Shown piece after piece: positions 23,766-49,990 of a stretch of 64,000 nucleotides of DNA. The notes beneath the pieces were generated by a model. It ran no database searches. It saw nothing but the letters and a program-made list of their open reading frames with translations, and was not told the origin of the DNA. The translations under genes were made by a program, and so were the position numbers. Positions within the stretch are counted from its first letter, which is position 1. Every line of letters starts with the position of its first letter. Where the stretch lies: the NCBI GenBank assembly GCA_043821115.1, contig JBDRDD010000032.1, positions 16,836 to 80,835 on the forward strand, given 5' to 3'. Source of the DNA: a bacterium (lineage in GTDB: Bacteria > CAYTYR01 > UBA6262 > DAOVJB01).

Positions 23766-24893
23766 ATGAAACTCAAGATTAACGAGGATTTTAATCAATC
23801 TGCGAATATAAAGGTGATAGGTCTCGGTGGTGGCGGGGGTAACGCCGTCAACAGGATGGTTCTTTCCGGCATTAAAGGTGTTGAGTTTATTGCCATCAAC
23901 ACGGATGTTCAGGCTTTGAAGGCTTCCATTGCCTCTGACAGACTTCAAATAGGGGAAACGCTTACAAGGGGTCTCGGTGTAGGCGGGGATCCTGATGTGG
24001 GAAGACAGGCGGCCGAGGAATCACGTCAGGAAATAAAAGATGCGCTAAAAGGCACGGACATGCTTTTTATAACTGCGGGTCTCGGTGGTGGCACAGGTAC
24101 GGGGGGCTCTTCCGTTATAGCCGAGATATCACAGTCTATGGGTATACTTACCGTGGCTGTTGTAACAAAACCTTTCGTGTTTGAAGGCAAGATTAGGGCA
24201 AGGCAGGCGGAGGAAGGGTTAAAACGACTCAACGGCAAGGTTGATACTCTTATAGCTATCCCGAACCAGAGGTTGTTTTCAGTAATTGACAAGAATACCT
24301 CGATGCTTGATTCTTTTAAGGTCGCAGATGATATACTGCGTCAGGGAGTACAGAGTATAGCGGATATCATAACCCAGCACGGTATAGTGAACGTTGATTT
24401 TGCAGATGTAAAAACTATTATAAAAAGTGCCGGTAATGCTTTTATGGGTGTGGGATTCGCTTCGGGTTCGGATAAGGCCAAGATAGCTGCGCATAAAGCG
24501 GTGAGTTCTCCCCTTCTTGAGGATGCCACCATAGAAGGCGCCACAAGGGTGCTTGTCAATATAACCAGTAAGTCAGATATTAAAATGTATGAGACCGAGC
24601 AGATAATGAAGATCATAACGCATTCGATTTCCCATGAAGCAAACGTGATATTCGGTGCGGTCTTCAATGAAAATATGGAAGAAGATGGGATTAAGGTAAC
24701 AGTTATTACCGCGGGTTTTACTCGTGCTAATGAGCGCAGGAAGAGCGATTTATTACCGCGCAGGCAGGTGGACATGGATTCGGAAAAAGCTTTCACGACA
24801 ACAGTGAGAAGTTCAGGTGATCCCAGGAATAATCTCAGCATACCTGCATATTTGAGAAGGAAAAGGGGGTTGGAAGAAGGCGATGGAACTTAA
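23766..24893 (+). CDS. ftsZ: Cell division protein FtsZ
   Basis: GLGGGGGNAVNRM and tubulin signature GLGGGTGTGGSSVIA. Confidence 0.98.
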   Translation: MKLKINEDFNQSANIKVIGLGGGGGNAVNRMVLSGIKGVEFIAINTDVQALKASIASDRLQIGETLTRGLGVGGDPDVGRQAAEESRQEIKDALKGTDMLFITAGLGGGTGTGGSSVIAEISQSMGILTVAVVTKPFVFEGKIRARQAEEGLKRLNGKVDTLIAIPNQRLFSVIDKNTSMLDSFKVADDILRQGVQSIADIITQHGIVNVDFADVKTIIKSAGNAFMGVGFASGSDKAKIAAHKAVSSPLLEDATIEGATRVLVNITSKSDIKMYETEQIMKIITHSISHEANVIFGAVFNENMEEDGIKVTVITAGFTRANERRKSDLLPRRQVDMDSEKAFTTTVRSSGDPRNNLSIPAYLRRKRGLEEGDGT

Positions 24894-25989
24894 TGAACTA
24901 CTCCGTGATATGGTAAAGAGGAAAGCTTCTGATTTACACCTGAGGGCAGGCAGTCGGCCGACTGTTCGCATAAACGATGAACTCCTTCCTTTGGAAGATT
25001 ATGAGAAACTTACTCCAGATGATGTAAAGACGATAGCTTCGAAGGTTATGACCGAAGAACAAAAAAATATATACGAAAAGGAACATGAGCTTGACATAGG
25101 ACACAGCGTTAGTGATGTCGGGCGTTTCCGTCTTAATATTTTCCAGCAGCGCGGGACGGTTGATATAGTTCTTCGCATGATACCTTTCTCGGTTCCCAAG
25201 TTCGGGGAACTAAACCTGCCGGATGTTCTCTCAAAGATAGCCGAACAGCCCCGAGGCCTGGTCCTTGTTACAGGTACAACGGGGAGCGGCAAGAGCACAA
25301 CACTTGCGGCTATGCTAGATTATATCAATTCCAACCAGAAGAAGCATATTATAACGGTGGAAGATCCGATAGAATTTCTGCACAAAGATAAGATGAGTAT
25401 TATAAGCCAGCGTGAGCTTGGCACGGACACCAAGTCGTTTCCTACAGCGCTTAGATACATCATGAGGCAGGATCCGGATGTCATACTAATAGGTGAGATG
25501 AGGGACCTTGAGACAATGTCAACAGCCCTGACAGCCGCGCAGTTGGGGCATTTGGTTCTGAGCACGCTCCACACTATAGACGCTGTTTCAACGGTTACAA
25601 GGATCATAGATTTATTTCCCCCACATCAGCAGAATCAGATAAGATTGCAGTTGTCCGATACACTAAAAGCCGTTATATCCCAGAGACTGCTGCCGCTTGC
25701 AAATGAAGAGGGATTAATTCCAGCGGTGGAAGTTATGATGGTCACGCCGTATATACGCAAATTAATAGAGGAAAACAAACTCTCGGAAATAAGCAAAGCA
25801 GTCCAGCAAGGGGATTATTACGGTATGCAGAGTTTCAACAAATCCCTGGTGGATCTGTATCAATCGGGTAAGGTCACTATTGATGATGCTAGGGAGAATG
25901 CCACAAGTCCCGAGGAATTCATGCTCAATGTCAAGGGAATATATGCCGGGGATAATACCTCTATGAATTTTGATGAAAACGGAAAATAA
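24883..25989 (+). CDS. pilT: Type IV pilus retraction ATPase PilT
   Basis: Walker A GTTGSGKSTTLA, ...ITVEDPIEF..., ...DVILIGEMRD..., ...GHLVLSTLHT...; 11-nt overlap with ftsZ. Confidence 0.92.
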   Translation: MELNELLRDMVKRKASDLHLRAGSRPTVRINDELLPLEDYEKLTPDDVKTIASKVMTEEQKNIYEKEHELDIGHSVSDVGRFRLNIFQQRGTVDIVLRMIPFSVPKFGELNLPDVLSKIAEQPRGLVLVTGTTGSGKSTTLAAMLDYINSNQKKHIITVEDPIEFLHKDKMSIISQRELGTDTKSFPTALRYIMRQDPDVILIGEMRDLETMSTALTAAQLGHLVLSTLHTIDAVSTVTRIIDLFPPHQQNQIRLQLSDTLKAVISQRLLPLANEEGLIPAVEVMMVTPYIRKLIEENKLSEISKAVQQGDYYGMQSFNKSLVDLYQSGKVTIDDARENATSPEEFMLNVKGIYAGDNTSMNFDENGK

Positions 25990-25990
25990 T

Positions 25991-26983
25991 ATGAAGGTAT
26001 TGATCACCGGAGCTAACGGATTTATAGGAAGTCACCTAACGGAAGCCCTTCTGGATAAGGGATATAGTGTCAGGTGTCTTCTCAGAAAAACAAGTGATCT
26101 TTCTTGGCTGGCGCCCCTTGAGGAAAAATCATCAGGGCGTCTTGAATTTGTTTATGGGGATATTTGTGACAAAGAATCTCTTAGGGCAGTCGTGGGGGAT
26201 GTTGATTACGTATATCATGTGGCTGGGCTTGTCAAGGCACACCGGCCGCAGCGCTATTACGAGGTGAATGTCGAAGGGACAAGGAACCTTGCCGAGGTTA
26301 CAAGAGATATTTCCCCCAACATTAAGAAATTCGTTTTCTTCAGTAGCCTTGCTGCAAGCGGTCCAAGCGATGACGGGCATCTCTTAAAGGAGCTTGAGAC
26401 CTCTCATCCCGTGACAGACTATGGCAAAAGCAAACGTGATGCAGAAGACTTGCTGAAGAATGATTTCTCGTCTAAATTACCGGTGGTTGTAATACGGCCT
26501 CCTATAATTTACGGCCCAAGGGACAGGGGGTTCTATTTTTATTTCAAAATCGTGAAAAAAGGAATAATTCCCGTCACGGGAAAGAAGATAAGCGCCTGTT
26601 TCGTGAGTGACCTTGTGAAGGGAGCTATACTGGCAGCAGAGAGTAAAGCTTCAGACTCTCAGGTGTATTTTATATCCGATCCGGTTCCTTTTTCTCCGGA
26701 AAGCATAGGCAGAACTATAGCTAAGTTTCTCCAGGTTGATGCTAAAAAAATAAAAGTCCCGGCTTTCATTGTCATGGCAGCCGGTTTTTTAAGCCAGTTC
26801 ATAAGTGATTTAAGCGGCAAGATTACAATATTCAATATTCAAAAGGCCAGGGAGATGGTACAGCCATACTGGGTATGCGATGTCTCCAAGGCGCGGGCCG
26901 AACTGGGTTTTAAGGCATCCATTGATATAGAAGAGGGTATTAGAATAACAGTTGACTGGTACAAGAAGCGCGGATGGCTGTAA
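25991..26983 (+). CDS. Extended SDR (NAD-dependent epimerase/dehydratase family); candidate CerR-like ketoreductase
   Basis: Rossmann GANGFIGSHL at the N-terminus when started at ATG 25991 (2 nt after the pilT stop); catalytic YGKSK. The functional assignment is inference from neighbours. Confidence 0.8.
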   Translation: MKVLITGANGFIGSHLTEALLDKGYSVRCLLRKTSDLSWLAPLEEKSSGRLEFVYGDICDKESLRAVVGDVDYVYHVAGLVKAHRPQRYYEVNVEGTRNLAEVTRDISPNIKKFVFFSSLAASGPSDDGHLLKELETSHPVTDYGKSKRDAEDLLKNDFSSKLPVVVIRPPIIYGPRDRGFYFYFKIVKKGIIPVTGKKISACFVSDLVKGAILAAESKASDSQVYFISDPVPFSPESIGRTIAKFLQVDAKKIKVPAFIVMAAGFLSQFISDLSGKITIFNIQKAREMVQPYWVCDVSKARAELGFKASIDIEEGIRITVDWYKKRGWL

Positions 26984-27002
26984 GAGGTTTAGATTAAAAA
27001 AT

Positions 27003-27016
27003 CATAGTATACTATG
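27003..27016. repeat. Perfect 14-bp palindrome CATAGTATACTATG directly upstream of the Spt-like gene
   Basis: Read directly; self-complementary. It contains a TATACT -10-like hexamer and lies 12 nt before the GTG at 27028. Confidence 0.9.
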
Positions 27017-27027
27017 AACAGGGGGTT

Positions 27028-28326
27028 GTGATGGACTTATTTGATAAGTGCAGTAAATTTACTGCTGCCAGGGAGATAATGGCTGCCGGTCTTTATCCAT
27101 ATTTTAACATCGTCAATTCAGCACAGGACCCGGAGGTAATCGTAGGGGGCAAGAGGATGATAATGGTAGGCTCCAATGATTACCTTGGCCTGACCACTCA
27201 TCCTAAGTTGATAAAAGCCGCAGCAAGGGCGCTAAAGCGCTACGGGACAGGATGTACGGGATCACGTTTCTTAAACGGCACATTTGACATTCATGAGGAA
27301 CTCGAGAGCAAACTTGCCAGGTTTGAACAAAAAGGCGCGGCGCTCTTTTTCACAACAGGTGTTCTTGCAAACCTTGGAACTATATCAGCGCTTGTAGGGA
27401 AGGATGATATTGTTATAACAGACAAAGCGGATCACGCCAGCATCATCGATGCCTGTCATCTTTGCTTTGGCGAGACCAAGAGGTTCAGGCACAACAATAT
27501 GGAAGATCTGGGACGTGTACTCGCATCATGTGACAAATCAAAAGGCAAACTGATCGTGGTTGACGGTGTGTTTAGCACAGAAGGTGATATAATAGATCTT
27601 CCAAACGTCGTAAAACTTGCCAAACAGTACAATGCCCGTATAATGGTGGATGATGCTCATTCTGTAGGAGTTCTGGGTGAGGAGGGCAAAGGTACCGCTG
27701 AGCATTACGGGCTGCAGGATGAAGTGGATATAATAATGGGAACATGCAGCAAATCTCTTGCTTCGATTGGGGGTTTTATAACAGCAACCGAAGAAGTGGT
27801 TCATTACCTCAGACACAATTCCAGGGCACTTATTTTCAGCGCGAGTCCGCCTCCGGCGTCGGTTGCAGTAGTATCTGCCGCCCTAGATGTTATAATTGAA
27901 GAACCCCAGAGACGTAAAAGACTTTGGGAGAATACAAGGAAGATGCAGCATGGATTCAAAGAGATGGGATACGATACAGGAGATACACAGACTCCTATAA
28001 TACCCGTTATCATAGGTGATAATTTCAAATGTTTCCAGATGAGGAAAATATTGCTTGAGAAGGGTGTTTTTACAAACCCTTTCGTGAGTCCCGCGGTGCC
28101 TGAAGGAAGGGCGTTGATCAGGACAAGTTATATGGCAACACACACCGAGGAACAGCTTGACCGAGTGCTTGAGGTTTTTGAAAGTGTCGGTAAACAACTA
28201 GGGATAATTCCTGGGGGCAAAATTCGCAGAGCAGCGAAGAAGATCCCCCTGAGAAAACGGATAACGAACCAGATGAAGAACGGGGTCAACACATGGATGC
28301 AAAGGATATACAAGTTCAAGCGGTAG
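27028..28326 (+). CDS. PLP-dependent alpha-oxoamine synthase, serine palmitoyltransferase-like
   Basis: ...VGSNDYLGL..., GSRFLNGT, DDAHSVG, PLP-lysine motif GTCSKSLASIGG; ~45-aa basic C-terminal tail. Start is GTG 27028 or ATG 27031. Confidence 0.85.
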   Translation: MMDLFDKCSKFTAAREIMAAGLYPYFNIVNSAQDPEVIVGGKRMIMVGSNDYLGLTTHPKLIKAAARALKRYGTGCTGSRFLNGTFDIHEELESKLARFEQKGAALFFTTGVLANLGTISALVGKDDIVITDKADHASIIDACHLCFGETKRFRHNNMEDLGRVLASCDKSKGKLIVVDGVFSTEGDIIDLPNVVKLAKQYNARIMVDDAHSVGVLGEEGKGTAEHYGLQDEVDIIMGTCSKSLASIGGFITATEEVVHYLRHNSRALIFSASPPPASVAVVSAALDVIIEEPQRRKRLWENTRKMQHGFKEMGYDTGDTQTPIIPVIIGDNFKCFQMRKILLEKGVFTNPFVSPAVPEGRALIRTSYMATHTEEQLDRVLEVFESVGKQLGIIPGGKIRRAAKKIPLRKRITNQMKNGVNTWMQRIYKFKR

Positions 28327-29417
28327 AAACACGAAGGGATCTTTTGGATTTTATAAAATTTGCGCAGCATGTGTATAAAGATGATCCGCACTGGGTTGCG
28401 CCTCTTGTGGCGGAGAGAAAGGCACTTCTTGGTAGCGGGAATCCTTTCTGGAAGCACAGTGACAGAATACTTTTTCTTGCAAAACGAGGCAAAAGGATAG
28501 TTGGCCGCATCGAAGCCGCAGTTGACCGCAATTATATCGAATTTCAGCGGGAGACTTGCGGTTTTTTTGGTTTTTTCGAGTGTTTTCCTGATTACAGGAT
28601 TGCCCAGAGGCTGCTTGACACAGTACACGGATGGCTTAAAGCAAAAGGTGTGAGTGTTATGAGAGGGCCTTTCAATCCGTCAACAAACGATGAATGCGGC
28701 TTTCTATTGGAAGGGTTTGATTCAGACCCATATGTGATGATGACATATACTAAGAAGTATTATCTTGATTATATGGAGCGTTACGGGCTGAAAAAAGCGA
28801 AGGATCTTTTTGCATATACGATGCCAGTTAATCCTGAGCCACCCGAAAAACTCATACGCGGGACAGAAATAGCGAAAAAGAAGAACCCGGATGTTGTTAT
28901 ACGTCATATCAACATGAAGGAGTACGCGAGCGAAGTAAAAAAAGTCCATACGGTATACAATGCGAGTTGGACGAAGAACTGGGGCTTTGTTCCCTGGACT
29001 GGAGATGAATTCAATTACCTTGCTAAGCAGTTAAAACCCCTTGCCGAACCGGAGCTCGTCTGGTTCGCGGAGGTGGACGAGAAACCCATAGGTTTTCTCA
29101 TGGCGCTCCCGGACTATAACCAGGTGTTAAAAAAATTAGCCGGGCGCATGGGGCCTATTGAGATAATTAAATTTCTCCTAAACAGAAAAAAGATAAGAAA
29201 TCTGCGCCTTATGGCAATGGGGGTTTTACCGCAATACAGGAGGAGGGGGATAGATGCTCTTCTTTACTTAGAATCTTTGAGGGTGGCCTACAGGAAGGGT
29301 TACAAGTACTGCGAGGTGTCGTGGATTTTAGAGGAGAATGTACTTACGCAGAGAGCCACGGAGATGATGGGGGGCAAATTATATAAGAAATACAGAATAT
29401 ATGAAATAGATATATAG
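28293..29417 (+). CDS. Two-lobed GNAT-fold acyltransferase; candidate bacterial ceramide synthase (bCerS-like)
   Basis: 374 aa. C-terminal GNAT motif A ...GVLPQYRRRGIDALL...; N-terminal ...GFFGFFEC... and ...MRGPFNPSTNDECGFLLEGFD...; 34-nt overlap with the Spt-like gene. Confidence 0.6.
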   Translation: MDAKDIQVQAVETRRDLLDFIKFAQHVYKDDPHWVAPLVAERKALLGSGNPFWKHSDRILFLAKRGKRIVGRIEAAVDRNYIEFQRETCGFFGFFECFPDYRIAQRLLDTVHGWLKAKGVSVMRGPFNPSTNDECGFLLEGFDSDPYVMMTYTKKYYLDYMERYGLKKAKDLFAYTMPVNPEPPEKLIRGTEIAKKKNPDVVIRHINMKEYASEVKKVHTVYNASWTKNWGFVPWTGDEFNYLAKQLKPLAEPELVWFAEVDEKPIGFLMALPDYNQVLKKLAGRMGPIEIIKFLLNRKKIRNLRLMAMGVLPQYRRRGIDALLYLESLRVAYRKGYKYCEVSWILEENVLTQRATEMMGGKLYKKYRIYEIDI

Positions 29418-29435
29418 TATATATATAATATATAT

Positions 29436-30338
29436 TTAAGGAAGTAACATGTCTATTGCTTTGGGGCATATCTCAAATTCTGACGGCATTATCTCCAGCG
29501 AATCTCCGTCCACCTGTGCCCACAAGTTTCCCTCGTATTGTAGTTTTACAGCCTTAGTACGCAAATACTCAACATCGTCAAAACTAAGATGTTTACCTAT
29601 AATTATTCCCCAGATGTAGCGCAGAAGATCCCTTCTTCGAGGGCCCTTAAAAAGACATATATGAAGGAGTCCGTCATCAAGGTTGGCATGGGAGGTTATC
29701 CTGAATCTTCCGCCGTAAGATTTTATATTTCCTATAATAGCGAAATAGCCGCTTAGGGGTGGCTGTGTGTTGTCACACACTAATGAGAATTTCGTGGGGT
29801 TGTATTTTAGCAGGACAGGTATCCCCGTCAGGATATGTGCCAGTTTGCCTCCTACTATTTTCTTGAGTTTGGGCTTAAATGATTTTACTACCTGTGCGTC
29901 AAAGCCGATGCCGGCCATCGATATAAAATAGCGCGTGAAAGGGGTGCATATTTTTATAAGATCAGTCTTTTTTGTTTGATAAGATATAAGGGCTCTGCAG
30001 GCTTTTATCGGATCCATGGGAATGTCTGCCTCGAGTGCGAATACATTGCTTACCCCAAGGGGGATAATTCCCAGGACCGTTTTATTTGAAGGGTTTTTAT
30101 TCTTCGCGTGCATTATACCGTTTATACACGCATTCAAGGTTCCGTCCCCTCCGGCGGAAATGATAAGTTCACACCCGTCTGTTGCCAGTTCCGATACCTT
30201 GGATATAGTTTGCTCTATGGTGCCTGTAGGGGTAATTGTTACATGGTTTTTCTCCCGAAGTATGGACATAATCTCTAGAAGGCGGTTTTTGGCGTGGCCC
30301 TTTCCTGAGTCGAAGTTGGTTATGATATGGATATGCAC
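29436..30338 (-). CDS. DAGK-catalytic-domain lipid kinase (YegS/BmrU/LCB5-like)
   Basis: ...ISAGGDGTLN... motif. GTG start at 30338 lies 4 nt after GGAGG on the minus strand; the track ATG at 30371 has no SD. Only minus-strand gene in the window. Confidence 0.8.
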   Translation of the reverse strand: MHIHIITNFDSGKGHAKNRLLEIMSILREKNHVTITPTGTIEQTISKVSELATDGCELIISAGGDGTLNACINGIMHAKNKNPSNKTVLGIIPLGVSNVFALEADIPMDPIKACRALISYQTKKTDLIKICTPFTRYFISMAGIGFDAQVVKSFKPKLKKIVGGKLAHILTGIPVLLKYNPTKFSLVCDNTQPPLSGYFAIIGNIKSYGGRFRITSHANLDDGLLHICLFKGPRRRDLLRYIWGIIIGKHLSFDDVEYLRTKAVKLQYEGNLWAQVDGDSLEIMPSEFEICPKAIDMLLP

Positions 30339-30437
30339 TTTACCTCCTTTTATGATAATATAGTGTATCATAGGAGGAGGCTTTAGGCAAGCGGAAAATA
30401 AAATGCCTTAAACCGTAGAGTTTTCAATATTTTTTGC

Positions 30438-30529: not shown

Positions 30530-31618
30530 ATGGGAATAATTCCAAAAATGAACAAGGAAATAGTAGGTTTAGATATAGGGACTCATTCTATTAAGATCAT
30601 CTGCCTTCGGGCAGATTCTTTGCTTAATATAGGGGTTGCCGAGATATCAAACGAGGCTATAAGTGGGCTTTCCGCTGAGGCAAGGGATAATCTGCTTATA
30701 AATACACTCAAAAGGGTTTTGTCGGGGAATAAGGTAACGGCCCAAAATAGCGTTAGCTCTGTAGCCGGTGACGGTGTAATCGTAAGATATATTACCCTGC
30801 CCAAGATGACGGAAAAAGAGCTTTCCGCCACTATTAAATTTGAAGCGGAACCGCATGTTTCTTTTGATATTGAACAGGTGATACTTGACTATCAGATAAT
30901 CGGCGAAAAACTGGAAGAGGACTTGAAAAAGATGGATGTTATTCTGGTTGCGGCCAAAAAGGATACGATAACCAGGCATCTCAGTTTTCTGGAATCTGCA
31001 GGGTTATCTCCCGTTGTTATTGATGTGGATGCCTTTGCCCTTGAAAATGCATATGAATTTAGCCATCCGGAAGATGCAGGCGGGTCAGTTGCTCTTGTCA
31101 ATATAGGGGCTACATTTACAAACGTAAATATTCTTGAAGATGGCATTTCCCGTTTTACCAGGGATATACTTATAGCAGGCAACAACTTTACCAAGGTGAT
31201 CCAAAGAGATATGCGTGTTGACTATCAGAAGGCCGAGGCAATGAAGAGGGAAAAGGCCACTGTCATGCTTGAAGAGGAAAGGGGATCCCTTAGTGTGGAT
31301 GATGAAGATGTTGCCCATGTGTCTGAGGCTATAAGGGGGCCCGTAAATGAGTTGCTTGCCGAACTCCAGCGTTCTTTCGATTACTATCAGGCTCAAACGC
31401 AGGAGCGCTCAATCAAAAAATGTATTCTAAGCGGCGGTAGCGCCAAGTTGAAAAACATAGATAAATTCCTTTCTCATGAATTAAAGGTTTCCGTGGAAAT
31501 AGACAATCCTTTAGCGAGATTAGAAATTGACCCGCAGGTCTATTCGCCTGAATATATTAAAAATGTTGCGCCTTTGTTTTCCGTAGCACTAGGACTAGCC
31601 GTAAGAAGGGGTAAATAA
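30530..31618 (+). CDS. pilM: Type IV pilus assembly protein PilM
   Basis: Actin-like ATPase fold ...VGLDIGTHSIKI..., ...ILSGGSAKL...; heads the pilMNOPQ order. Confidence 0.9.
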   Translation: MGIIPKMNKEIVGLDIGTHSIKIICLRADSLLNIGVAEISNEAISGLSAEARDNLLINTLKRVLSGNKVTAQNSVSSVAGDGVIVRYITLPKMTEKELSATIKFEAEPHVSFDIEQVILDYQIIGEKLEEDLKKMDVILVAAKKDTITRHLSFLESAGLSPVVIDVDAFALENAYEFSHPEDAGGSVALVNIGATFTNVNILEDGISRFTRDILIAGNNFTKVIQRDMRVDYQKAEAMKREKATVMLEEERGSLSVDDEDVAHVSEAIRGPVNELLAELQRSFDYYQAQTQERSIKKCILSGGSAKLKNIDKFLSHELKVSVEIDNPLARLEIDPQVYSPEYIKNVAPLFSVALGLAVRRGK

Positions 31619-39144: not shown

Positions 39145-40296
39145 ATGAAGTTCAGGATATGTATGATTATAGCCCGTTTCCACCCATATATAGGTGGGAC
39201 GGAGTTGCAGGCTTTGAGGCTTTCTCAAGCGCTAATGGCCAAGGGGGCCAGTGTTTTCGTAGTCACTCAAAGATTGAAAAAATTGAAGAAATTTGAAGAA
39301 ATCAATGGATTAAAGATATACAGGCTCTTTACTTTTGGAAAGGGTATATTTGCGTCTTTTGTTTTTATGTTTTCATCATTTATATTCTTTCTTAAAAAAG
39401 CTAAAAAATATGATATTATTCATGCTCATTTGGCGTCCTCACATGCTATTACTGCAGTAATAGCGGCTAAGCTTTTTAATAAAAAAGTGGTCTTGAAACT
39501 AGGAGGAGCTGGACCAACAGGAGATATAGGGACCGGCACGGCATCCATTATTGGTAAATATAAATTAAAATTTATCAGAAATAGAGTTAATGCTTTTATC
39601 GTTCCAAGTTCAGAAATCAAGGACGAGTTGATTGCTAACCATTTTCCAGAAAGCAAGATATATCATATTGCTAACGGAGTGAACACAGATTTATTCAGTC
39701 CCGTCAATTTAGAAGAAAAACATATGTTACGCATGCAATTACGTTTGCCTGGTAAATATCTAGTGGTGTATGCGGGACGTATTGAACCGGGAAAGGGTGT
39801 GGGGATTCTACTTGAAAGCTGGGGATCTATTGTTCAACGATTTCCCGAGGCGCATTTATTAATATTAGGAGAAGGCAGCCTAAAGGATGGTTTAATAAGA
39901 GAGCTTAGTAATAAAAGTTATAAGCAGCAGGTCTATTTTTTAGATAATGTCCAAGCTGTAAGTAAGTATTTACAAGCCTCTGATATATTTGTCCTTCCTT
40001 CTTTGGCTGAAGGGCTATCGAATGCTCTCCTGGAGGCAATGTCTTGTGGTTTAGCAATAATTACAACTAAAATAGGTGGGATAGAAGATATTATAATAGA
40101 CAATGAAAATGGGATTTTGTTTGCTCCAGATGATATTGATTCATTGTCTCAGAAGATTCTTTTCCTATTTGATAATCCGGAAAGAGCAGCTAATTTAGGT
40201 ATAACAGCTCGTTTAACAGTAGAACGTAATTATTCGTTATCTGAAATAAGCCAGAGATATTTACAGCTTTATAATAGAATTTTATGTGAGAATTAG
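39145..40296 (+). CDS. Family 4 glycosyltransferase (paralogue 1 of 3)
   Basis: GT-B/GT4 C-terminal motif ...FVLPSLAEGLSNALLEAMSCGLAIITTKIGG... Confidence 0.85.
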   Translation: MKFRICMIIARFHPYIGGTELQALRLSQALMAKGASVFVVTQRLKKLKKFEEINGLKIYRLFTFGKGIFASFVFMFSSFIFFLKKAKKYDIIHAHLASSHAITAVIAAKLFNKKVVLKLGGAGPTGDIGTGTASIIGKYKLKFIRNRVNAFIVPSSEIKDELIANHFPESKIYHIANGVNTDLFSPVNLEEKHMLRMQLRLPGKYLVVYAGRIEPGKGVGILLESWGSIVQRFPEAHLLILGEGSLKDGLIRELSNKSYKQQVYFLDNVQAVSKYLQASDIFVLPSLAEGLSNALLEAMSCGLAIITTKIGGIEDIIIDNENGILFAPDDIDSLSQKILFLFDNPERAANLGITARLTVERNYSLSEISQRYLQLYNRILCEN

Positions 40297-40321
40297 ATTA
40301 AAAGGAAAGGACTAAATTTTT

Positions 40322-41470
40322 GTGAACTTGAATGTATGTATGGTAATTTCTTATTTTTATCCTTTTGTAGGAGGAGCAGAAGGACAGGCTCTGAAATTAG
40401 CCCAGGAATTGAAGAAAAAAGGAATAGATATCTTTATTGTCACTCGCAGGGTTCGCGGATTAAGCAAGTTTGAATCTTTCAAAGGGATTGATCTATATCG
40501 GCTTTGGGGTTTAGGTAAAGATAATCGTATTTCTTCCTTGTTTTTCTCTATAAATTTACTATTTTTTTTAATTAAAAAACGTAGTCAATATCAAATAATA
40601 CATTGTCATCTTCTTTCTACTTTGACGGTTATTTGTATATTAATAGGAAAGTTATTGAATAAGAAGGTGATTGCAAAATTAGGAGGTAGTGGTAGATACG
40701 GTGACCTTTGGGCGATAAAGAACAAAGCTCTTTTAGGTAGAGCAAAATTATGGGTTTTAATTAACTATATTGATTTATTTATATGCCCAAGTAGAGAGAT
40801 TAGACAAGAACTATTAAATACCGGAACATCCCAAGATAAAGTTATGATGATTCCTAATGGTGTAAGTATTAATAATTTTTTTCCTTTGGATTTATTTCTG
40901 AAACAAGAATTAAAACAAAAAATGGGGATGAAAGGTCAACTCATTATTTTCTCAGGGAGATTATCTCCAGAAAAAGATTTAGAGACATTATTATCTGTAT
41001 TTAAAGAAATTGTAAAAGATTATGAAATAGCACTCCTTATATTGGGAGCAGGTCCGTTAGAAAGTAAATATCAAGATTGGGTAGGCCAGAATCAACTTAA
41101 GGAAAAGGTTTATTTTTTAGGTAATATAGAGAAAGTCACTCCTTATTTGCAAATTAGCGATATTTTTGTTTTGCCCTCTTTGTCTGAAGGATTATCCAAT
41201 TCTCTTTTAGAAGCGATGGCTTGTGGTATTCCGGCAGTTGTGACTGATATAGGTGGAAATAGAGATATGATTCATGATGGTATCAATGGATTTTTATTTG
41301 TTCCCCAGAATAAGGCTAGACTTAAAGAGAAATTAGTATTTTTATTGGAGAATCCGACAGAGAAAGAAAGATTAAGAAAAGAGGCAAGAAAAACCATTGA
41401 AGAAAGATATACCTTAGAATTAGTAGCTAAGAGATATATAGATTGCTATAAGGCACTTTTAGGTGGTTAG
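40322..41470 (+). CDS. Family 4 glycosyltransferase (paralogue 2 of 3)
   Basis: ...FVLPSLSEGLSNSLLEAMACGIPAVVTDIGG...; N-terminus is collinear with 39145 and 46835. Confidence 0.85.
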   Translation: MNLNVCMVISYFYPFVGGAEGQALKLAQELKKKGIDIFIVTRRVRGLSKFESFKGIDLYRLWGLGKDNRISSLFFSINLLFFLIKKRSQYQIIHCHLLSTLTVICILIGKLLNKKVIAKLGGSGRYGDLWAIKNKALLGRAKLWVLINYIDLFICPSREIRQELLNTGTSQDKVMMIPNGVSINNFFPLDLFLKQELKQKMGMKGQLIIFSGRLSPEKDLETLLSVFKEIVKDYEIALLILGAGPLESKYQDWVGQNQLKEKVYFLGNIEKVTPYLQISDIFVLPSLSEGLSNSLLEAMACGIPAVVTDIGGNRDMIHDGINGFLFVPQNKARLKEKLVFLLENPTEKERLRKEARKTIEERYTLELVAKRYIDCYKALLGG

Positions 41471-41496
41471 TAGAAATAAAAATTAGGGGAAATTCT

Positions 41497-43050
41497 TTGA
41501 GCACAAATTTAAAAATTGCTAAAGCCTCTTTAATTCTAATAACAGCAAGTATTTTAGGCCATTTATTAAGTCTGGGAAAAGAAATAATCGTTGCTGCAAA
41601 GTTTGGGATTACCAGAGGAATGGATGCTTTTTATGCAGCTATTAGTGTGCCTAATCTAATTAATAGTGTTCTTCTGTCTGCTTTAGGGGCAGTTTTTATC
41701 CCAGTTTTTATTAGATATAAACTTAAAGACAAAGAGGAAGCTAATCGAGTTGCTTCTGTTGTTATGAATTATTTCTTTATCTTTTTTATTTCTGGAGCAG
41801 TAATTATTTTTATTCTTGCTCCCTGGATTATTAAATATGGATTTCACGGATTTGACTTGGAAACGAGTACTTTAGCTATTAATATATTACGTATTGCATC
41901 CTTTACACTTATCTTTTCTGGTTTAATCGGGATAATGACTGGTATCCTCAATGCTCACCATCATTTTACCTGGCCAGCGTTTTCTCAGATGTTTGTTACT
42001 CTAAGCACCATATTTTTTATTCTTCTTTTTATGAGACAATGGGGAATTTTTGTTCTCGTTTGGGGGTTACTTTTCGGTTTAATTATTCAATTTTTCTTTT
42101 TAATTCCAATTACTAAACAGAAAGAATATCACTATTATCCTGATTTCAACTGGAAACATCCAGCAGTAAAGGAAATGCTGAAGTTAGGTGGTGTCTACTT
42201 TGTGGCAATCGTGATGGCAGAGTGTAATCTCGTTGTGGATAAGGTGATGGCTTCTTACTTGGCGCCTGGTAGCATTGCTGCCTTAGGCTATGCTGGAAAG
42301 TTGGTTAATGTTCCATTAATAATTTTTTCCTCATCTATAGCCACAGCAGTTTTTCCATTTTTTTCTCAACAGGTTGCTGAAGGCAAAGTTGAAGAAATGA
42401 AAGATTCACTGAGTAAAAGTATAAGAATGTCTGGGTTTATTTTTATTCCTTTAACTGTAATGTTAATTATTCTTGCCAAACCGATAATCCAACTCTTATT
42501 TCAAAGGGGAGCGTTTACTTCCAAAGCTACAGATTTAACGTCATTAATTTTTATATGTTATTCTTTTCAATTTTTCTTTTATACAGTGGGAATAATTATG
42601 TCAAAAGTATTTCTCGCGCTTCAAGATATTAAAACGTTATTTAAGATAACAGTTATCGCGGTTATAATGAATATAATTCTGAACTTAGTTTTTATAAAAA
42701 TTATATCACCTCCAGCTGCTGGAATTGCTCTTTCAACCTCGTGTATATATTTTATAGCTATGTTTATGTACTATATTATCTTAAAAAGGAAAATAGCTGA
42801 TTTATGTGAGAGATATATACTAACTGGATTTGTTAAAATAGGAATAAGCTGTGTTTTTATGGGTTCAGTTGTTTTTTTAATGCTTAAAATTTATGGTAAG
42901 CTAGATACGTGTACTTTATTTATTTATCAGGTAGTACGCCTGGGAATTATCGGCTTATTGGGGGTGATTGTTTTTATTGGGTGTGCTGCCTTTTTTAGAA
43001 TTGAAGAGTTAAATAAATTGAAGGAAATTATTTATGATAGGATTAAATAA
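41497..43050 (+). CDS. MurJ/MviN-family (MOP superfamily) lipid-linked glycan flippase
   Basis: 517 aa, ~14 TM. The N-terminus ...ILGHLLSLGKEIIVAAKFGITRGMDAFYAAISVPNLI... resembles the MurJ signature. TTG start. Confidence 0.8.
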   Translation: MSTNLKIAKASLILITASILGHLLSLGKEIIVAAKFGITRGMDAFYAAISVPNLINSVLLSALGAVFIPVFIRYKLKDKEEANRVASVVMNYFFIFFISGAVIIFILAPWIIKYGFHGFDLETSTLAINILRIASFTLIFSGLIGIMTGILNAHHHFTWPAFSQMFVTLSTIFFILLFMRQWGIFVLVWGLLFGLIIQFFFLIPITKQKEYHYYPDFNWKHPAVKEMLKLGGVYFVAIVMAECNLVVDKVMASYLAPGSIAALGYAGKLVNVPLIIFSSSIATAVFPFFSQQVAEGKVEEMKDSLSKSIRMSGFIFIPLTVMLIILAKPIIQLLFQRGAFTSKATDLTSLIFICYSFQFFFYTVGIIMSKVFLALQDIKTLFKITVIAVIMNIILNLVFIKIISPPAAGIALSTSCIYFIAMFMYYIILKRKIADLCERYILTGFVKIGISCVFMGSVVFLMLKIYGKLDTCTLFIYQVVRLGIIGLLGVIVFIGCAAFFRIEELNKLKEIIYDRIK

Positions 43051-44281
43051 AATTAAATTTTTTAAGATATGTTCGATATTATTGGCCCTAATGGTAGTTT
43101 TTATTATAGGTGAGAGCATATTAAGAATAAGCATACTGTATAAAAGCTCAATCTTAAAGGGAACAAAGGATGTTTTTAATTTATATCAACATGATGAATT
43201 TTTAGGTTGGAAAGGAAAACCTAAAGTAAAAGAGTGGATGAATAATGGAATCCAGAATTACTTTGTTCAGCACAACTCGGAAGGTTTTAGAGATAGAAAT
43301 TACCAGATGACAAAGAAAATTCCACGAATTGTTATTTTAGGGGATTCTTTCACTTGGGGTTTTGGAGTTGAAGCACATCAAAGATTTAGTAATATTTTGG
43401 AGCGAGATTACTTTAATAACCGTGTTGAAGTAATAAATCTTGGGATTTGTGGATATGGTACAGATCAGGAATATCTTATGTTGAAAAATTATGGATTTAG
43501 CTATAATCCGGATTTGGTAATTTTGATGTTTCAGATTAGTAGTGATTTAATAGAAAATATGTCGTCTGTTCAATATAAGCAGAACAAGCCGTATTATATT
43601 TTTAAAAATGGCAACTTAACCTTAAAAAAGAATTCCCTTTCTAAACAGACTAATAACTCTTGTCAGGATATTACTGAAAGTTCTGCAAAGAATATTGTAG
43701 GATCAATAAAGAGTGTTTTGAGAGGAATGAAATTATATCTTTTAGTTGTTACGAAAATTAGACAAAACTGTCTTTGGCTCTCAGATGTGCTTATTAAAAT
43801 AGGTGTAATGGAACCTTACCCAATTCTTAAACCAGACAATGGATTATATATTTTCAACCAATATTATTCAACTGAATGGGAAGAGGGATGGAATGTTACA
43901 AAGGCTTTAATTAAGAAAATCAAATATGATGCATCCTTAAAAAAGATTAAATTTGTACTCGTTTTAATACCAGATAATTTACAGGTAGATGGGAGTGAGT
44001 TTAATGATTTTATTAAGACATATCGTAGTGAAAAAAGTCTAATTGATATAGATAAACCAAATACTATACTATCTCGTTTTGCCAAAAGAAATAATATTTA
44101 TGTTCTTGATCTACTTCCTGCTTTTAGATATGTAGCAAATGAAGGAGAAAAAACATATTTTCGTATTTATGATCGTCATTGGAATAATAATGGGCATGCT
44201 TTAGCAGCAAAATTTATCTATGATTATATTGTTGAGAAAGACGACATTTTTAACTCTATAAATAAAACGAGGGATGAATAA
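43034..44281 (+). CDS. Membrane-anchored SGNH/GDSL-type hydrolase
   Basis: N-terminal TM; block I ...VILGDSFTWGFG...; C-terminal ...YDRHWNNNGH... (DxxH). Confidence 0.65.
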   Translation: MIGLNKIKFFKICSILLALMVVFIIGESILRISILYKSSILKGTKDVFNLYQHDEFLGWKGKPKVKEWMNNGIQNYFVQHNSEGFRDRNYQMTKKIPRIVILGDSFTWGFGVEAHQRFSNILERDYFNNRVEVINLGICGYGTDQEYLMLKNYGFSYNPDLVILMFQISSDLIENMSSVQYKQNKPYYIFKNGNLTLKKNSLSKQTNNSCQDITESSAKNIVGSIKSVLRGMKLYLLVVTKIRQNCLWLSDVLIKIGVMEPYPILKPDNGLYIFNQYYSTEWEEGWNVTKALIKKIKYDASLKKIKFVLVLIPDNLQVDGSEFNDFIKTYRSEKSLIDIDKPNTILSRFAKRNNIYVLDLLPAFRYVANEGEKTYFRIYDRHWNNNGHALAAKFIYDYIVEKDDIFNSINKTRDE

Positions 44282-44283
44282 AA

Positions 44284-45222
44284 ATGAAAGAAAAATTGTT
44301 AAATTATTTGTGTTGTCCAAAATGTGAATCGGATCTCAAACTGAAAATTAAAGAAATAGAAAATGGAGAAATAAAAACAGGAGAGTTTGTTTGTTCGAAA
44401 TGTTCTAATAATTATAAAATCTTCAATTATGTTCCTCGTTTTGTCGAGACAGATAAGTATACAGGTAGTTATAGTTTAGAATGGAATTTACATAGGAGGA
44501 CACAACTTGATTCTGATTCAGGGACTACAGAGTCGCAAGGTACATTTATTACTAAAACGGGTTTTAATCTTAAAGATTTGAAAGGCAAAGTTGTTTTTGA
44601 AGCAGGCTGTGGCTCAGGTAGATTTTTGGAGATTGCTTCCAATAATGGTGCAGAAGTAATCGGTGTGGATCTTTCTTACGCTGTTGATGCGGCACAAAAA
44701 AACTTTGGACTATTAAAAAATGTGCATATTGTTCAGGCAGATATATTTAATTTGCCTTTTAAAAGAGAGACTTGTGATTATGTCTACTCTATAGGGGTTT
44801 TGATGGCGACACCAGATACAAAACAGGCATTTATGAAACTTCCGCCACTGCTGAAAAAGGGAGGGCAAATAGCGATTTGGGTTTATTCCAAGTGTCACCA
44901 CGAACATCTTCCTGATTTTCATTATAGAAAGATCACGACAAAACTTCCCAAGAAGCTTTTATATTTATTAAGCTACTTAGCTGTACCATTTTACTACTTA
45001 AAAAAAATTCCTGTTCTAAGGAGTTTTGTGTCGATATATATGCGTACATCTAATCATCCTAACTGGAGATGGAGAGTGTTAGAGACTTTTGACTGGTATT
45101 CTTCAGAGTATATATTTACTCATACTTGTTATGAGGTTATAAAGTGGTTTAAAGAGGCAGGGTTAAAGGAAATAGAACTTCTGGAATTTCCGGTTGCAGT
45201 CAGGGGTAAGAAAAATGACTAA
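44284..45222 (+). CDS. Zinc-ribbon (Trm112-like) + class I SAM methyltransferase
   Basis: CCPKC...CSKC N-terminal ribbon; SAM motif I ...FEAGCGSGRF...; paralogue of 45885..46829. Confidence 0.8.
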   Translation: MKEKLLNYLCCPKCESDLKLKIKEIENGEIKTGEFVCSKCSNNYKIFNYVPRFVETDKYTGSYSLEWNLHRRTQLDSDSGTTESQGTFITKTGFNLKDLKGKVVFEAGCGSGRFLEIASNNGAEVIGVDLSYAVDAAQKNFGLLKNVHIVQADIFNLPFKRETCDYVYSIGVLMATPDTKQAFMKLPPLLKKGGQIAIWVYSKCHHEHLPDFHYRKITTKLPKKLLYLLSYLAVPFYYLKKIPVLRSFVSIYMRTSNHPNWRWRVLETFDWYSSEYIFTHTCYEVIKWFKEAGLKEIELLEFPVAVRGKKND

Positions 45223-45895
45223 TAGATGGCTTGAGTTTTTAGAGAAAGAAACTGAAAAATACCACAACCTTTTGGAATATAGTGTTAATCACTGGAATTA
45301 TAACGACCCTCTTTATTTTAAAATCAAGGAACTGTTAAAACCACAAGCAAAGATTTTAGACATAGGTTGTGGTTTTGGACTCTCGGATATATATCTTCAG
45401 GAATGCGGATATAGTGTAATAGGTATCGATAACGATATTAATATTGTTGAACAAGCAAGAAGAAATGCCGAATATTTCAATTCGTCTGTTAAATTTGAGC
45501 AAGGAGACGCTTTTGATTTATCAAAATATTATGATTCTTTTGATTTGGTGTTTTCTGTAGGAGTTGCGGAACATTTTGATAGAGGTATTACAGTTAAATT
45601 GATAAAAGAACAAGCTAAATGTGCTAGTTATGTTATATGTGTTATCCCAACTAAATTTACAAAGTATTCAGGAGAAATTACAGACGAGAGAATTTATACT
45701 ATTTCTCAATTGTCTGGAATATTTAAAGAAGCAGAGTTAAAAGTTATTGGTCGATTTGGTTATGGTAATATTATTTCACCATTTCATAATGGAATACATC
45801 GGTTATTACCACATGGGTTATATCGAATTCTTCAGAATAATTTTTCATACGCTATGGGGATTGTTTGTATAGGAAGGAAAAAAAATGAAGGATAA
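45215..45895 (+). CDS. Class I SAM-dependent methyltransferase
   Basis: ...ILDIGCGFGLS... and ...VFSVGVAEHF.... ATG 45215 overlaps the upstream stop by 8 nt; the track start 45194 is further upstream. Confidence 0.8.
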   Translation: MTNRWLEFLEKETEKYHNLLEYSVNHWNYNDPLYFKIKELLKPQAKILDIGCGFGLSDIYLQECGYSVIGIDNDINIVEQARRNAEYFNSSVKFEQGDAFDLSKYYDSFDLVFSVGVAEHFDRGITVKLIKEQAKCASYVICVIPTKFTKYSGEITDERIYTISQLSGIFKEAELKVIGRFGYGNIISPFHNGIHRLLPHGLYRILQNNFSYAMGIVCIGRKKNEG

Positions 45896-46829
45896 ATTGT
45901 TAAAACTACTTTGTTGTCCTAAGTGTAAAGAGGATTTAGCTATACATAAATCCGAAATTGTATCAGATAAGATTAGAAATGGTGATTTACAGTGTCCCGT
46001 TTGTCAGATAAAATACCCGATTAAAAATTTTATTCCTAGATTTGTAAAAACAGATAAATATGTAAAAAGTTTTAGTTTTGAGTGGCAAATTCATCACAAA
46101 ACGCAGTTAGATAGTACCAGAAGTGTTTCTGAATCTGAAGATACTTTTATAGAAAAAACAGGATTAAAATTAGAAAAGTTAAAAGGAAAACTTATTTTAG
46201 ATGTGGGGTGTGGAGTAGGTAGATACATAGAACCAGTTGCTCGGTGTGCACAGGAAGTTGTAGGGATTGACTTATCTTATGCTGTAGATTCTGCGCAAGA
46301 GAACCTTAAGTATTTTGATAATGTCCATATTATCCAGGCAGATATTTTTAACTTGCCTTTTAAAAAAGAAACTTTCGATTTTATTTATAGTATCGGGGTT
46401 CTCCACCATACACCAGATACAAAAAAAGCTTTTTTAAATCTAATTCCGTTTCTGAAAAAAGGAGGAAGCATAGCTATTTGGCTTTATTCTAATGAAACCC
46501 GTTATGAACGGGTTAGTAATAAATTTACCGATTTCTATCGTTTTTTTACGAGAAGGTTGCCTAAAAGATTATTATGGTATTTATGTCATTTAGCTATTCC
46601 TTTATATACATTAAAAAATATAAAAAAACTTAGGACTGTACTTGATTTGGTTTTACCTATGTCTAATCATCCTGATCCGGAATGGCGAGTTTTAGATACA
46701 TTTGACTGGTATTCACCCATGTTTCAACATAAACATACTTATCGAGAAGTAGTTGCTTGGTTTGAGGAAGCTGGTTTAAGGGATATTGAATTATTGAATT
46801 TTCCTGTATCAGTTAAGGGAAGGAAGTAA
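45885..46829 (+). CDS. Zinc-ribbon (Trm112-like) + class I SAM methyltransferase
   Basis: CCPKC...CPVC ribbon; ...LDVGCGVGRY...; collinear with 44284..45222 over the full length. Confidence 0.8.
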   Translation: MKDKLLKLLCCPKCKEDLAIHKSEIVSDKIRNGDLQCPVCQIKYPIKNFIPRFVKTDKYVKSFSFEWQIHHKTQLDSTRSVSESEDTFIEKTGLKLEKLKGKLILDVGCGVGRYIEPVARCAQEVVGIDLSYAVDSAQENLKYFDNVHIIQADIFNLPFKKETFDFIYSIGVLHHTPDTKKAFLNLIPFLKKGGSIAIWLYSNETRYERVSNKFTDFYRFFTRRLPKRLLWYLCHLAIPLYTLKNIKKLRTVLDLVLPMSNHPDPEWRVLDTFDWYSPMFQHKHTYREVVAWFEEAGLRDIELLNFPVSVKGRK

Positions 46830-46834
46830 TAGTA

Positions 46835-47986
46835 ATGAATCCCAGAATTTGTATGATATGCTCTCAATTTTATCCTGTAGTGGGTGGGACAGAAAGACAA
46901 GCAGAAAATTTAGCTATAGAATTAAAGAAGAAAGGATATTCTGTCTTTATTTTGACTCAGAGGATAAAAGGAATTGAGAATAAGGAAGTAAAAGACGGGA
47001 TAACAATTTATAGGAAGATTGTTGCTCCTCATTTAGGACTGCTTTTTGGGATAAGTTATATAATTTCTGTATTTTTGTTTTTGTGGGGTAAAAGAAAACA
47101 ATATGATATAATTCATTGCCATATTTTTTATTTGCATACGATTTCTGCTGTAATAATAGGTAAATTATTTCAAAAAAAAGTTATTGTTAAATTAGCTTGC
47201 ACGAGTGATTTTGGTGAAATACAAACAATGCAAAAAGAGAAAAAGGCAGATTTTTTGTTAAAGATCTATAGAAAAGCAGATATATTTGTTAGCGTAAGTC
47301 AGGAAGGGATAAAGGAGTTAAAAAATATTGGTATTCCAGAATCAAAGATCATCTATATTCCAAATAGTATCGATACATCGAAATTGTTTCCTGTTTCTGA
47401 TATAGAAAAGATAGAATTAAAAGAGAAATTGTTCCTTGATAAAGAAAAAAAAATTGTTTCTTTTGTCGGTAGACTAAACCTTCAAAAAGGTGTTGAATAT
47501 TTGCTCTACGCTTGGCAGAAAGTGATAAAGGAATATCCACAATCTCTTCTTTTGATTATTGGTGACGGACCAGAAAGAAAGAATTTGGAGCAGCTTTCTA
47601 ATGGTTTAAAGATAAAAGATACCAATATAATATTTATGGGGATAAAAAGAAATATTAGCGACTATTTACAAGCAAGTAATATTTTTGTGCTTCCTTCTCT
47701 TTCTGAAGGATTGTCTGGGGCACTTTTGGAAGCAATGGCTTGCGGGCTTCCTTGTATAGTCACTCGTATAGGAGGTAATATAGATTTAATTGAAGATAGG
47801 GTGAGTGGTTTATTCGTAGAACAAGCCAATGTTGCTGACTTAGCAGAGAAAATAAAATATCTATCTGGAAATCCTCGGCTAGAACCTCTTTTAGGAAAAA
47901 ATGCTCGTCTAAATGTAGAGAAAAAATTTTCACTTCCAATATTTGTAGAAGAATATATTCAATTATATAAGAATCTAATTAAATAA
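46835..47986 (+). CDS. Family 4 glycosyltransferase (paralogue 3 of 3)
   Basis: ...FVLPSLSEGLSGALLEAMACGLPCIVTRIGG...; N-terminus MNPRICMICSQFYPVVGGTERQA parallels the other two. Confidence 0.85.
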   Translation: MNPRICMICSQFYPVVGGTERQAENLAIELKKKGYSVFILTQRIKGIENKEVKDGITIYRKIVAPHLGLLFGISYIISVFLFLWGKRKQYDIIHCHIFYLHTISAVIIGKLFQKKVIVKLACTSDFGEIQTMQKEKKADFLLKIYRKADIFVSVSQEGIKELKNIGIPESKIIYIPNSIDTSKLFPVSDIEKIELKEKLFLDKEKKIVSFVGRLNLQKGVEYLLYAWQKVIKEYPQSLLLIIGDGPERKNLEQLSNGLKIKDTNIIFMGIKRNISDYLQASNIFVLPSLSEGLSGALLEAMACGLPCIVTRIGGNIDLIEDRVSGLFVEQANVADLAEKIKYLSGNPRLEPLLGKNARLNVEKKFSLPIFVEEYIQLYKNLIK

Positions 47987-47998
47987 AGGAAAAGTCCA

Positions 47999-49896: not shown

Positions 49897-49990
49897 AGTA
49901 ATATTATTCTATATCTTTTAACCTTTATTTTTCAATGGGAGAAGCGTTTGGTTACTAAATACGCTATATCGGATGTATGGAGCTTGCATA

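Follow-up and report, generated by a model that had tools for sequence, protein, structure and literature searches.

A probable three-gene ceramide-backbone operon of the Spt/bCerS/CerR type within the ftsZ-pilT gene string of an apparently uncultivated bacterium

Results

Gene content of the locus

The window analyzed here is a 64,000-nucleotide (nt) stretch of contig JBDRDD010000032.1 (NCBI GenBank assembly GCA_043821115.1, positions 16,836 to 80,835 of the forward strand). Its positions 25991-29417 hold three adjacent plus-strand genes that probably constitute an operon for ceramide-backbone synthesis, of the Spt/bCerS/CerR type already known, inserted in an ftsZ-pilT gene string, a reading to which we assign a probability of about 0.85. 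The first gene (25991-26983), starting at an ATG 2 nt past the stop codon of pilT (a longer open reading frame (ORF) opens at a TTG from 25970), encodes a short-chain dehydrogenase/reductase (SDR) that is a candidate CerR-type reductase. The second (27028-28326), which has a GTG start, encodes a 432-amino acid (aa) alpha-oxoamine synthase (AOS) predicted to be a serine palmitoyltransferase (Spt). This protein ends in a basic tail of 38 aa, encoded at 28210-28326 on the plus strand, and this segment overlaps the start codon region of the third gene. The latter (28293-29417) encodes a 374-aa tandem-GNAT N-acyltransferase of the YghO/CC_1154 family, a candidate bCerS. A fourth gene, on the minus strand and convergent to the triad (29436-30338), encodes a 300-aa lipid kinase of the DAGK/YegS fold, whose membership of the module is uncertain.

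An earlier annotation, made from the sequence alone (hereafter the first-pass annotation), had described these genes as an SDR, an Spt-like AOS, a two-lobed GNAT, and a convergent DAGK-fold lipid kinase, placed between pilT and pilMNOPQ. All four ORFs were found where it had put them, and the motifs on which it relied are all present in the translations: GANGFIGSHL and YGKSK in the SDR, GSRFLNGT, DDAHSVG, and GTCSKSLASIGG in the AOS, QYRRRGID in the GNAT protein, and GGDGTLN in the kinase.

The AOS is predicted to be a serine palmitoyltransferase

The AOS has a Pfam Aminotran_1_2 domain (5e-56). In NCBIfam its top-scoring model is NF047600, Spt of the CFB type, with 546.1 bits versus 407-425 for Kbl and 392 for BioF. 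A comparison with PDB sequences gave the same ranking, the best match being the Spt of Sphingobacterium multivorum (SmSPT; 434 bits), followed by Thermus BioF/Kbl (318), the Spts of Sphingomonas (291-304), Kbl (273-298), cysteate-C-fatty-acyltransferases (223-250), ALAS (about 193), and CqsA (about 129). The alignment with SmSPT extends over 388 aa without gaps, at 50.5% identity. The active site of SmSPT is formed by 15 residues, i.e. Asn52, Gly80, Ser81, Phe83, Leu84, His138, Ser185, Asp210, Ala212, His213, Thr241, Ser243, Lys244, Met271, and Phe272 (PMC10196870). In the AOS 14 of the 15 are identical, with Lys242, His136, Asp208, and His211 aligning to SmSPT Lys244, His138, Asp210, and His213, respectively. 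The only exception is Met271, replaced by Ile, a residue that in SmSPT contacts the substrate via its main-chain carbonyl (PMC10196870).

A neighbor-joining tree (100 bootstraps), from which CapB and CqsA sequences were left out, was built with the following references: PGAP-annotated Kbl encoded beside tdh, BioF encoded beside bioC/bioD, HemA, the Spt of Escherichia coli, an acyl carrier protein (ACP)-linked Spt from Roseomonas, and three PDB sequences. In this tree the AOS groups with SmSPT and with the AOSs of other SDR-AOS-GNAT triads, the sister group being the Rhodobacteria-type Spts, and about 90% of the bootstraps separate the whole Spt clade from Kbl, BioF, and HemA. Clustering with BioF or Kbl, which the first-pass annotation had named as a result that would speak against it, thus did not occur, and its assignment of the AOS to Spt is borne out by the agreement of NCBIfam, PDB scores, active site, and tree. 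On these homology grounds, the AOS is best classified as an Spt of the Bacteroidota/"delta", acyl-CoA-using type.

The tail of the protein has a marked composition, with 13 Lys/Arg and no Asp/Glu in the last 40 residues, and a conserved end (W-M-x-R-I-Y-x-F-K/R). Only the ∼17 closest protein clusters, with 429-447 aa, share it. Shorter Spts of about 392-410 aa end in ...GKxLGII in the five clusters inspected. The tail may serve as a membrane tether or as a partner-binding element. Separately, an Spt-clade AOS 52% identical to that of the window is encoded on the Priestia megaterium (Bacillota) plasmid NZ_CP137804.1 (L086:6001-7215). It has no bCerS or CerR gene nearby, its neighbors being an "acyltransferase family" gene and a methyltransferase gene, and it appears as an orphan Spt-like gene.

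The GNAT protein and the SDR match bCerS- and CerR-position proteins

In the GNAT protein Pfam identifies Acetyltransf_1 (PF00583) at residues 233-349, i.e. in the C-terminal lobe only, and NCBIfam has no model for the protein. Its link to ceramide synthesis comes from E. coli YghO, which was first found by tblastn on annotated plasmids/chromids and which it matches with 35% identity over 98% coverage (2e-76). YghO (ECD_02850) is the ortholog of the Caulobacter N-acyltransferase "aca", CC_1154 (44% identity, 98% coverage, 1e-107; PMC9386255, Table S2), and CC_1154, named cerS/bcerS, is needed to form dihydroceramide (PMC11324152). A scan of a genome collection returned further homologs, at 34-36% identity, in Sphingomonas, Sphingobium, and Sphingomicrobium. 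These genera are classic sphingolipid producers. An AlphaFold model of the protein, built with 36 homologs, is a confident tandem GNAT (pLDDT 91, pTM 0.89). The top Foldseek matches of this model are tandem GNATs, namely MAB_4324, a Clostridium glucosamine N-acetyltransferase, and the mycothiol synthase MshD (E about 1e-13), with TM-scores of 0.54-0.62 when normalized by the query and 0.67-0.71 when normalized by the target. By analogy with MshD, the C-terminal lobe, which bears motif A, is likely to be the catalytic one. The earlier description of a two-lobed GNAT related to bCerS therefore holds, through the model and its tandem-repeat PDB matches for the fold, and through the YghO match and the published orthology for the relationship. 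As judged by homology, the protein is a member of the bCerS family.

The SDR is of the extended type, with a Pfam Epimerase domain (PF01370, 1e-33) and GxxGxxG (GANGFIG) and YxxxK (YGKSK) motifs. It matches the SDR of the E. coli spt cluster over nearly its full length (26% identity, 8e-32) and the SDR of a Streptomyces AOS-GNAT-SDR triad with 35% identity (3e-55), while the SDRs of triads from other phyla score 180-280 bits. In the reverse comparison, the E. coli cluster SDR scores 111 bits against this protein versus 48 bits against the other epimerase of the window. In NCBIfam, which has no curated CerR model, the best match is HpnA-like and lies below its cutoff (134 bits). The SDR can be retained as a CerR-type candidate, matching as it does the reductases found in the CerR position of the E. 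coli and Streptomyces clusters.

The triad is conserved across phyla

Synteny was surveyed in 29 GTDB-representative loci with a GNAT identity of at least 40% and enough upstream sequence. In 23 of these, the GNAT gene is immediately preceded by a co-oriented AOS gene, and in 22 the next gene beyond the AOS is an SDR gene (co-directional in 12, divergent in 10). Among the taxa represented are Endomicrobiia, Ignavibacteria, Dissulfurispiraceae (Nitrospirota), Gemmatimonadota, Bacteroidota, and Myxococcota, and the same AOS-GNAT-SDR triad is found on a Streptomyces plasmid. The survey of relatives proposed in the first-pass annotation thus shows the arrangement kept across phyla (22/29). In the more distant Planctomycetota and Alphaproteobacteria the triad genes are dispersed; dispersed genes were already known in sphingomonads and Bacteroidota (PMC9386255, PMC11334938). 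Among the GTDB representatives returned, identity reaches at most 50% for bCerS and at most 65% for Spt, which supports the view that the window comes from an uncultivated lineage; the closest relatives bearing a name are Nitrospirota, Zixibacteria, and unclassified "bacterium" metagenome-assembled genomes (MAGs).

At two of the Ignavibacteriaceae loci (L007:11139-13078 and L026:11137-13070), the bCerS gene is followed by genes for a GT2 glycosyltransferase and then a SAM methyltransferase. The GT2 protein has a weak match to the ceramide-glucosyltransferase family GT21, which suggests that this cluster is extended toward a glycosphingolipid head group.

The window holds no homologs of the Rhodobacteria-type acyl-donor partners

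As the first-pass annotation had reported, the window encodes no dedicated ACP or acyl-ACP synthetase: tblastn with E. coli AcpR and AasR found no homolog in the window, and the G-x-DS-[LIVM] motif is present in none of its small ORFs. AcpR and AasR are a trait of the Rhodobacteria-type Spt enzymes (PMC9386255), and their absence therefore fits the subgroup to which the window Spt is assigned.

The convergent lipid kinase

The kinase gene reported by the first-pass annotation is confirmed by DAGK_cat (1e-23) and YegS_C (4e-23) matches in Pfam and by the GGDGTLN motif. In its longest form the ORF reaches 30371; a length of 300 aa corresponds to that in a public protein collection, and homologs have 301-304 aa. 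The protein passes the TIGR00147 cutoff (131.6 versus 118.65 bits), which places it in the YegS/Rv2252/BmrU family, a broad family only. Among PDB sequences DgkB is the best match (80 bits), followed by YegS (58-61 bits).

The kinase gene is convergent with, and adjacent to, the GNAT gene in all five contigs of the lineage (the window, L080, a JGI contig, L081, and L082), in which the GNAT protein of L080 and that of the JGI contig are 74 and 70% identical to the one in the window, respectively. When metagenomes were scanned with the kinase as query, the short locus L081 was the sole match. Kinase identity is 55-62% inside the lineage and at most 43% outside. The whole ftsZ-to-pilQ region is collinear throughout these contigs; the conserved adjacency thus reflects inheritance and is not independent evidence of a functional link. 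Outside the lineage, 73 of 76 representative loci have no DAGK-family kinase gene within 10 kb of bCerS. In Ignavibacteriaceae (3 genomes) a DAGK-family kinase gene does occur about 1 kb beyond the SDR gene, on the same strand and with two small ORFs between, and the AOS-GNAT-GT2-methyltransferase genes run divergently from this SDR/kinase pair. Putative CpgB-like ORFs near alphaproteobacterial bCerS genes have a weak match to the kinase profile (24-35 bits).

The five nearest homologs examined outside the lineage, from Nitrospirota-type contigs (36-43% identity), are encoded directly downstream of bioW, with an overlap of about 23-41 nt at its 3' end and often in the order bioB-bioW-kinase (L083:7223-8873, L084:7223-8873, L085:7199-8909, L096:5253-6873, and L097:5199-6885). 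The product of bioW is pimeloyl-CoA synthetase; in these contigs a lipid kinase would thus be translationally coupled to the synthesis of a biotin precursor. A sixth outside homolog is linked neither to bioW nor to bCerS.

Genomic setting

Upstream of the module lie genes for MurB, Ddl, FtsQ, FtsA, FtsZ, and a PilT-type T2SSE ATPase, and downstream those for PilM, PilN, PilO, and the secretin PilQ. The flanking genes are thus, as assessed by Pfam, those claimed in the first-pass annotation. The PilT-type ATPase gene (24883-25989, plus strand; T2SSE, 6e-50) abuts the SDR gene, and pilM (30530-31618, plus strand; PilM_2, 2e-55), which opens the pilMNOPQ string, is transcribed divergently from the kinase gene; both are outside the module. 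The order ftsZ-pilT-module is also found in the relatives L080 and L082. The junctions are tight, with an 11-nt overlap of ftsZ and pilT, 2 nt between pilT and the SDR gene, a 44-nt gap between the SDR and AOS genes, and a 34-nt overlap of the AOS and GNAT genes. The stop codons of the GNAT and convergent kinase genes are 18 nt apart. A promoter/terminator scan returned 5 terminator-like sites, versus 6.8 expected, with none standing out from chance, in the module or elsewhere, and an Rfam search of the window gave no match. Because of the tight junctions and of this terminator result, it is plausible that the three plus-strand genes are co-transcribed with ftsZ-pilT, and we infer that they probably are.

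Across the window, GC skew is positive in all 2-kb bins, and of the 60 ORFs with a length of 150 aa or more, 53 have plus orientation. On the minus strand the kinase gene is the only ORF of this size with a domain match, the other six being nested in longer plus-strand ORFs, and it looks like an insertion opposing the local direction of transcription.

Further downstream, positions 40000-50000 form a low-GC island (31-33% versus about 42-45% elsewhere) with genes for GT4 glycosyltransferases, a MurJ/Wzx-like flippase, an SGNH/AlgX-like protein, three methyltransferases, and an asparagine synthase. The genes for two Wzy_C-TPR proteins lie upstream of this island, which is probably a surface-polysaccharide locus gained by horizontal transfer. 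The asparagine synthase gene is broken into two ORFs that overlap (47999-49405 and 49387-49896) and jointly span the Asn_synthase domain; this is a frameshift, reflecting either a pseudogene or an assembly error.

Discussion

In the pathway that we propose for this locus, the Spt, a pyridoxal 5'-phosphate (PLP) enzyme with Lys242 as its Schiff-base residue, would condense L-serine with a long-chain acyl thioester to yield 3-ketosphinganine. Given the Sphingobacterium type of the enzyme and the absence of AcpR/AasR, acyl-CoA is the most likely form of this thioester. The C-terminal lobe of the tandem-GNAT bCerS would then N-acylate 3-ketosphinganine from acyl-CoA to give oxidized ceramide, whose 3-keto group the extended SDR would reduce with NAD(P)H, giving dihydroceramide. 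The order, N-acylation before reduction, is taken from the Caulobacter model. The convergent gene for the DAGK/YegS-fold kinase is a transcription unit apart. From the serine-to-ceramide(-phosphate) route put forward in the first-pass annotation, the three-gene ceramide core is thus kept, whereas the phosphate step is unproven: that the kinase phosphorylates ceramide or a long-chain base is a tentative idea, with the odds leaning against it.

The Spt/bCerS/CerR pathway was defined in Caulobacter, and the co-localization of its genes was noted at that time (Olea-Ozuna 2021; Stankeviciute 2022). In Caulobacter crescentus the genes are spt (CC_1162), cerS/bcerS (CC_1154, equivalent to yghO), and cerR (CC_1164), and the window has the same three enzyme families. 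Relative to the E. coli cluster proteins, full-length identities are 39% for Spt, 35% for bCerS, and 26% for CerR, with the same predicted chemistry. In E. coli NZ_AP022222.1 (L003:4519-10122) the cluster is complete, and consists of yghO, an acyl-AMP ligase gene, an NAD-epimerase SDR gene, an ACP gene, and spt, followed by LptF/G paralogs. The window differs from both Caulobacter and E. coli in having neither AcpR/AasR genes nor LptF2/G2 or cpg genes nearby, in an Spt that falls in the Sphingobacterium/"delta" rather than the Rhodobacteria subgroup, and in the contiguous SDR-Spt-bCerS arrangement of its genes. Compared with SmSPT (PDB 3A2B and the 8GUH series), the PLP- and serine-binding residues are the same, but the window enzyme has the basic C-terminal tail, which SmSPT lacks, and Ile in the place of Met271.

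A survey by Ding et al. (2024) found Spt-like proteins in 1271 MAGs, with CerR and bCerS genes co-localized on Spt scaffolds, and raised the number of potential sphingolipid-producing phyla to 40 (PMC11334938); the earlier count of phyla with Spt/bCerS/CerR clusters was nine, before this figure of about 40. The thresholds in that study, set against its own reference set, were ≤1e-70 with 70% coverage for Spt and ≤1e-30 with 50% coverage for bCerS (PMC11334938), and the window proteins pass them when measured against SmSPT and E. coli YghO. The MAG clusters (PMC11334938; Stankeviciute et al. 2022) have the same architecture, with genes for an Spt-like protein, bCerS, and CerR within a few ORFs, and come from uncultivated anaerobe-type lineages. 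Because such clusters in uncultivated lineages are documented (PMC11334938), the one described here is ordinary when set against the literature of 2022-2024. Indeed, the triad is a typical ceramide cluster, the kind being already cataloged in dozens of uncultivated phyla. In contrast, its embedding between pilT and pilMNOPQ after the dcw genes and the adjacent DAGK-fold kinase gene were seen in none of the other lineages sampled, in agreement with the earlier remark that the position in a division/pilus gene string is unusual. Three traits are thus specific to the lineage: the insertion between pilT and pilM where the dcw cluster ends, the neighboring kinase gene, and the basic tail of the Spt.

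Several points weigh against the operon as proposed. Its chemistry is derived from characterized homologs, and the enzymes are identified by homology. The score of the AOS (546.1 bits) is below the curated equivalog cutoff of the Spt model (640 for NF047600), such that PGAP would not automatically name it Spt; this is due to divergence from the Bacteroidota seed sequences and not to a better fit elsewhere. The choice of amino acid, serine versus alanine or glycine, is not certain from sequence. The link of the GNAT protein to Caulobacter bCerS (CCNA_01212) is transitive, made via YghO and the literature. The SDR assignment leans mainly on position, the identity to the E. coli cluster SDR being only 26% and the best hidden Markov model being HpnA-like. 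Moreover, the close relative L082 (GCA_017973895.1) has no SDR gene between pilT and the AOS gene, its order being pilT, AOS (447 aa), GNAT, kinase, and pilM (L082:10141-13717), and the CerR-type gene of this genome must therefore be either encoded elsewhere or dispensable at this locus.

Among the other substrates or functions that can be envisaged for the AOS, use of mainly alanine or glycine, which would lead to 1-deoxy- or 1-desoxymethyl-(dihydro)ceramides, draws on the ability of SmSPT to accept L-Ala and Gly with low efficiency (PMC10196870), on the mention of a "(1-deoxy)Cer backbone" pathway for anoxic marine bacteria (PMC11334938), and on the Met271 to Ile change. We nevertheless consider it improbable, since the residues of the serine-hydroxyl network of SmSPT (Asn52, Gly80, Ser81, Ser243, and Thr241) are all identical and the contact made by Met271 is through the main chain. 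A capnine/sulfonolipid pathway, in which the AOS would be a cysteate-C-fatty-acyltransferase of the CapB/SulA type, was an alternative raised in the first-pass annotation. The enzyme belongs to the same superfamily, and this pathway also uses a reductase. The PDB scores (250 and 223 bits for cysteate acyltransferases versus 434 for SmSPT), the match to 14 of the 15 active-site residues of SmSPT, and a partner GNAT from a family required for ceramide synthesis disfavor this alternative to the point that it can be considered highly improbable. The slimmest chance of all is that of a housekeeping BioF or Kbl with an unrelated GNAT and SDR. JGI auto-annotation does label homologs "8-amino-7-oxononanoate synthase", but NCBIfam, PDB, and tree results all separate the AOS from these enzymes, no bio or tdh genes are adjacent, and the synteny with GNAT and SDR genes is conserved. 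A BioF/Kbl identity was rejected on the NCBIfam, PDB, and tree results.

The role of the kinase is more evenly balanced, and we lean slightly toward a three-gene ceramide module next to an unrelated kinase, either a general YegS/DgkB-type enzyme or a member of a bioW-coupled subfamily. Ceramide and dihydrosphingosine kinases of this fold have been proven in Caulobacter and Porphyromonas gingivalis (PMC10331486), namely CpgB and dhSphK1, and these share with the window kinase the DAGK/LCB5 fold and the GGDG motif; the latter is, however, a generic YegS/Rv2252/BmrU member with bioW-linked nearest outside relatives. A functional link is favored by the adjacency being kept in 5/5 contigs despite divergence to 55-62% identity and by the Ignavibacteriaceae, in which a DAGK-family kinase gene has independently come to lie near the SDR gene. 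Against this, the kinase gene is convergent and forms its own transcription unit, only 3 of the 76 representative loci have such a gene within 10 kb of bCerS, all five nearest outside homologs overlap bioW, the ftsZ-to-pilQ collinearity leaves the adjacency within the lineage little independent weight, and the CpgB-like candidates match the kinase profile only weakly. A broader scenario would make the kinase a third kind of sphingolipid kinase in bacteria, distinct from CpgB and dhSphK1 and recruited independently, producing ceramide 1-phosphate or a long-chain base phosphate, with the supply of sphingolipids coupled to division and to type IV pilus/outer-membrane assembly via ftsZ-pilT transcription in an uncultivated diderm, and with the Spt tail as a membrane tether. 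We regard this combination as unlikely.

The practical value of the ceramide operon assignment lies mainly in the annotation of these mislabeled proteins, whose homologs carry public labels such as "aminotransferase class I/II", "8-amino-7-oxononanoate synthase", "GNAT N-acetyltransferase", "hypothetical", and "dATP pyrophosphohydrolase". Legacy misannotations such as the last one are explained by the presence of yghO in E. coli genomes. Of 5426 complete E. coli genomes, 4549 have yghO, and BL21 and other B strains have a ceramide cluster of their own (PMC9386255), which is relevant to the choice of a clean heterologous host. The three genes would offer a compact, ACP-independent cassette, convenient for heterologous ceramide production. 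If the kinase is indeed linked to the module, this would hint at phosphosphingolipids outside Proteobacteria and Bacteroidota. Finally, the locus adds one more uncultivated lineage to the likely bacterial producers of sphingolipids.

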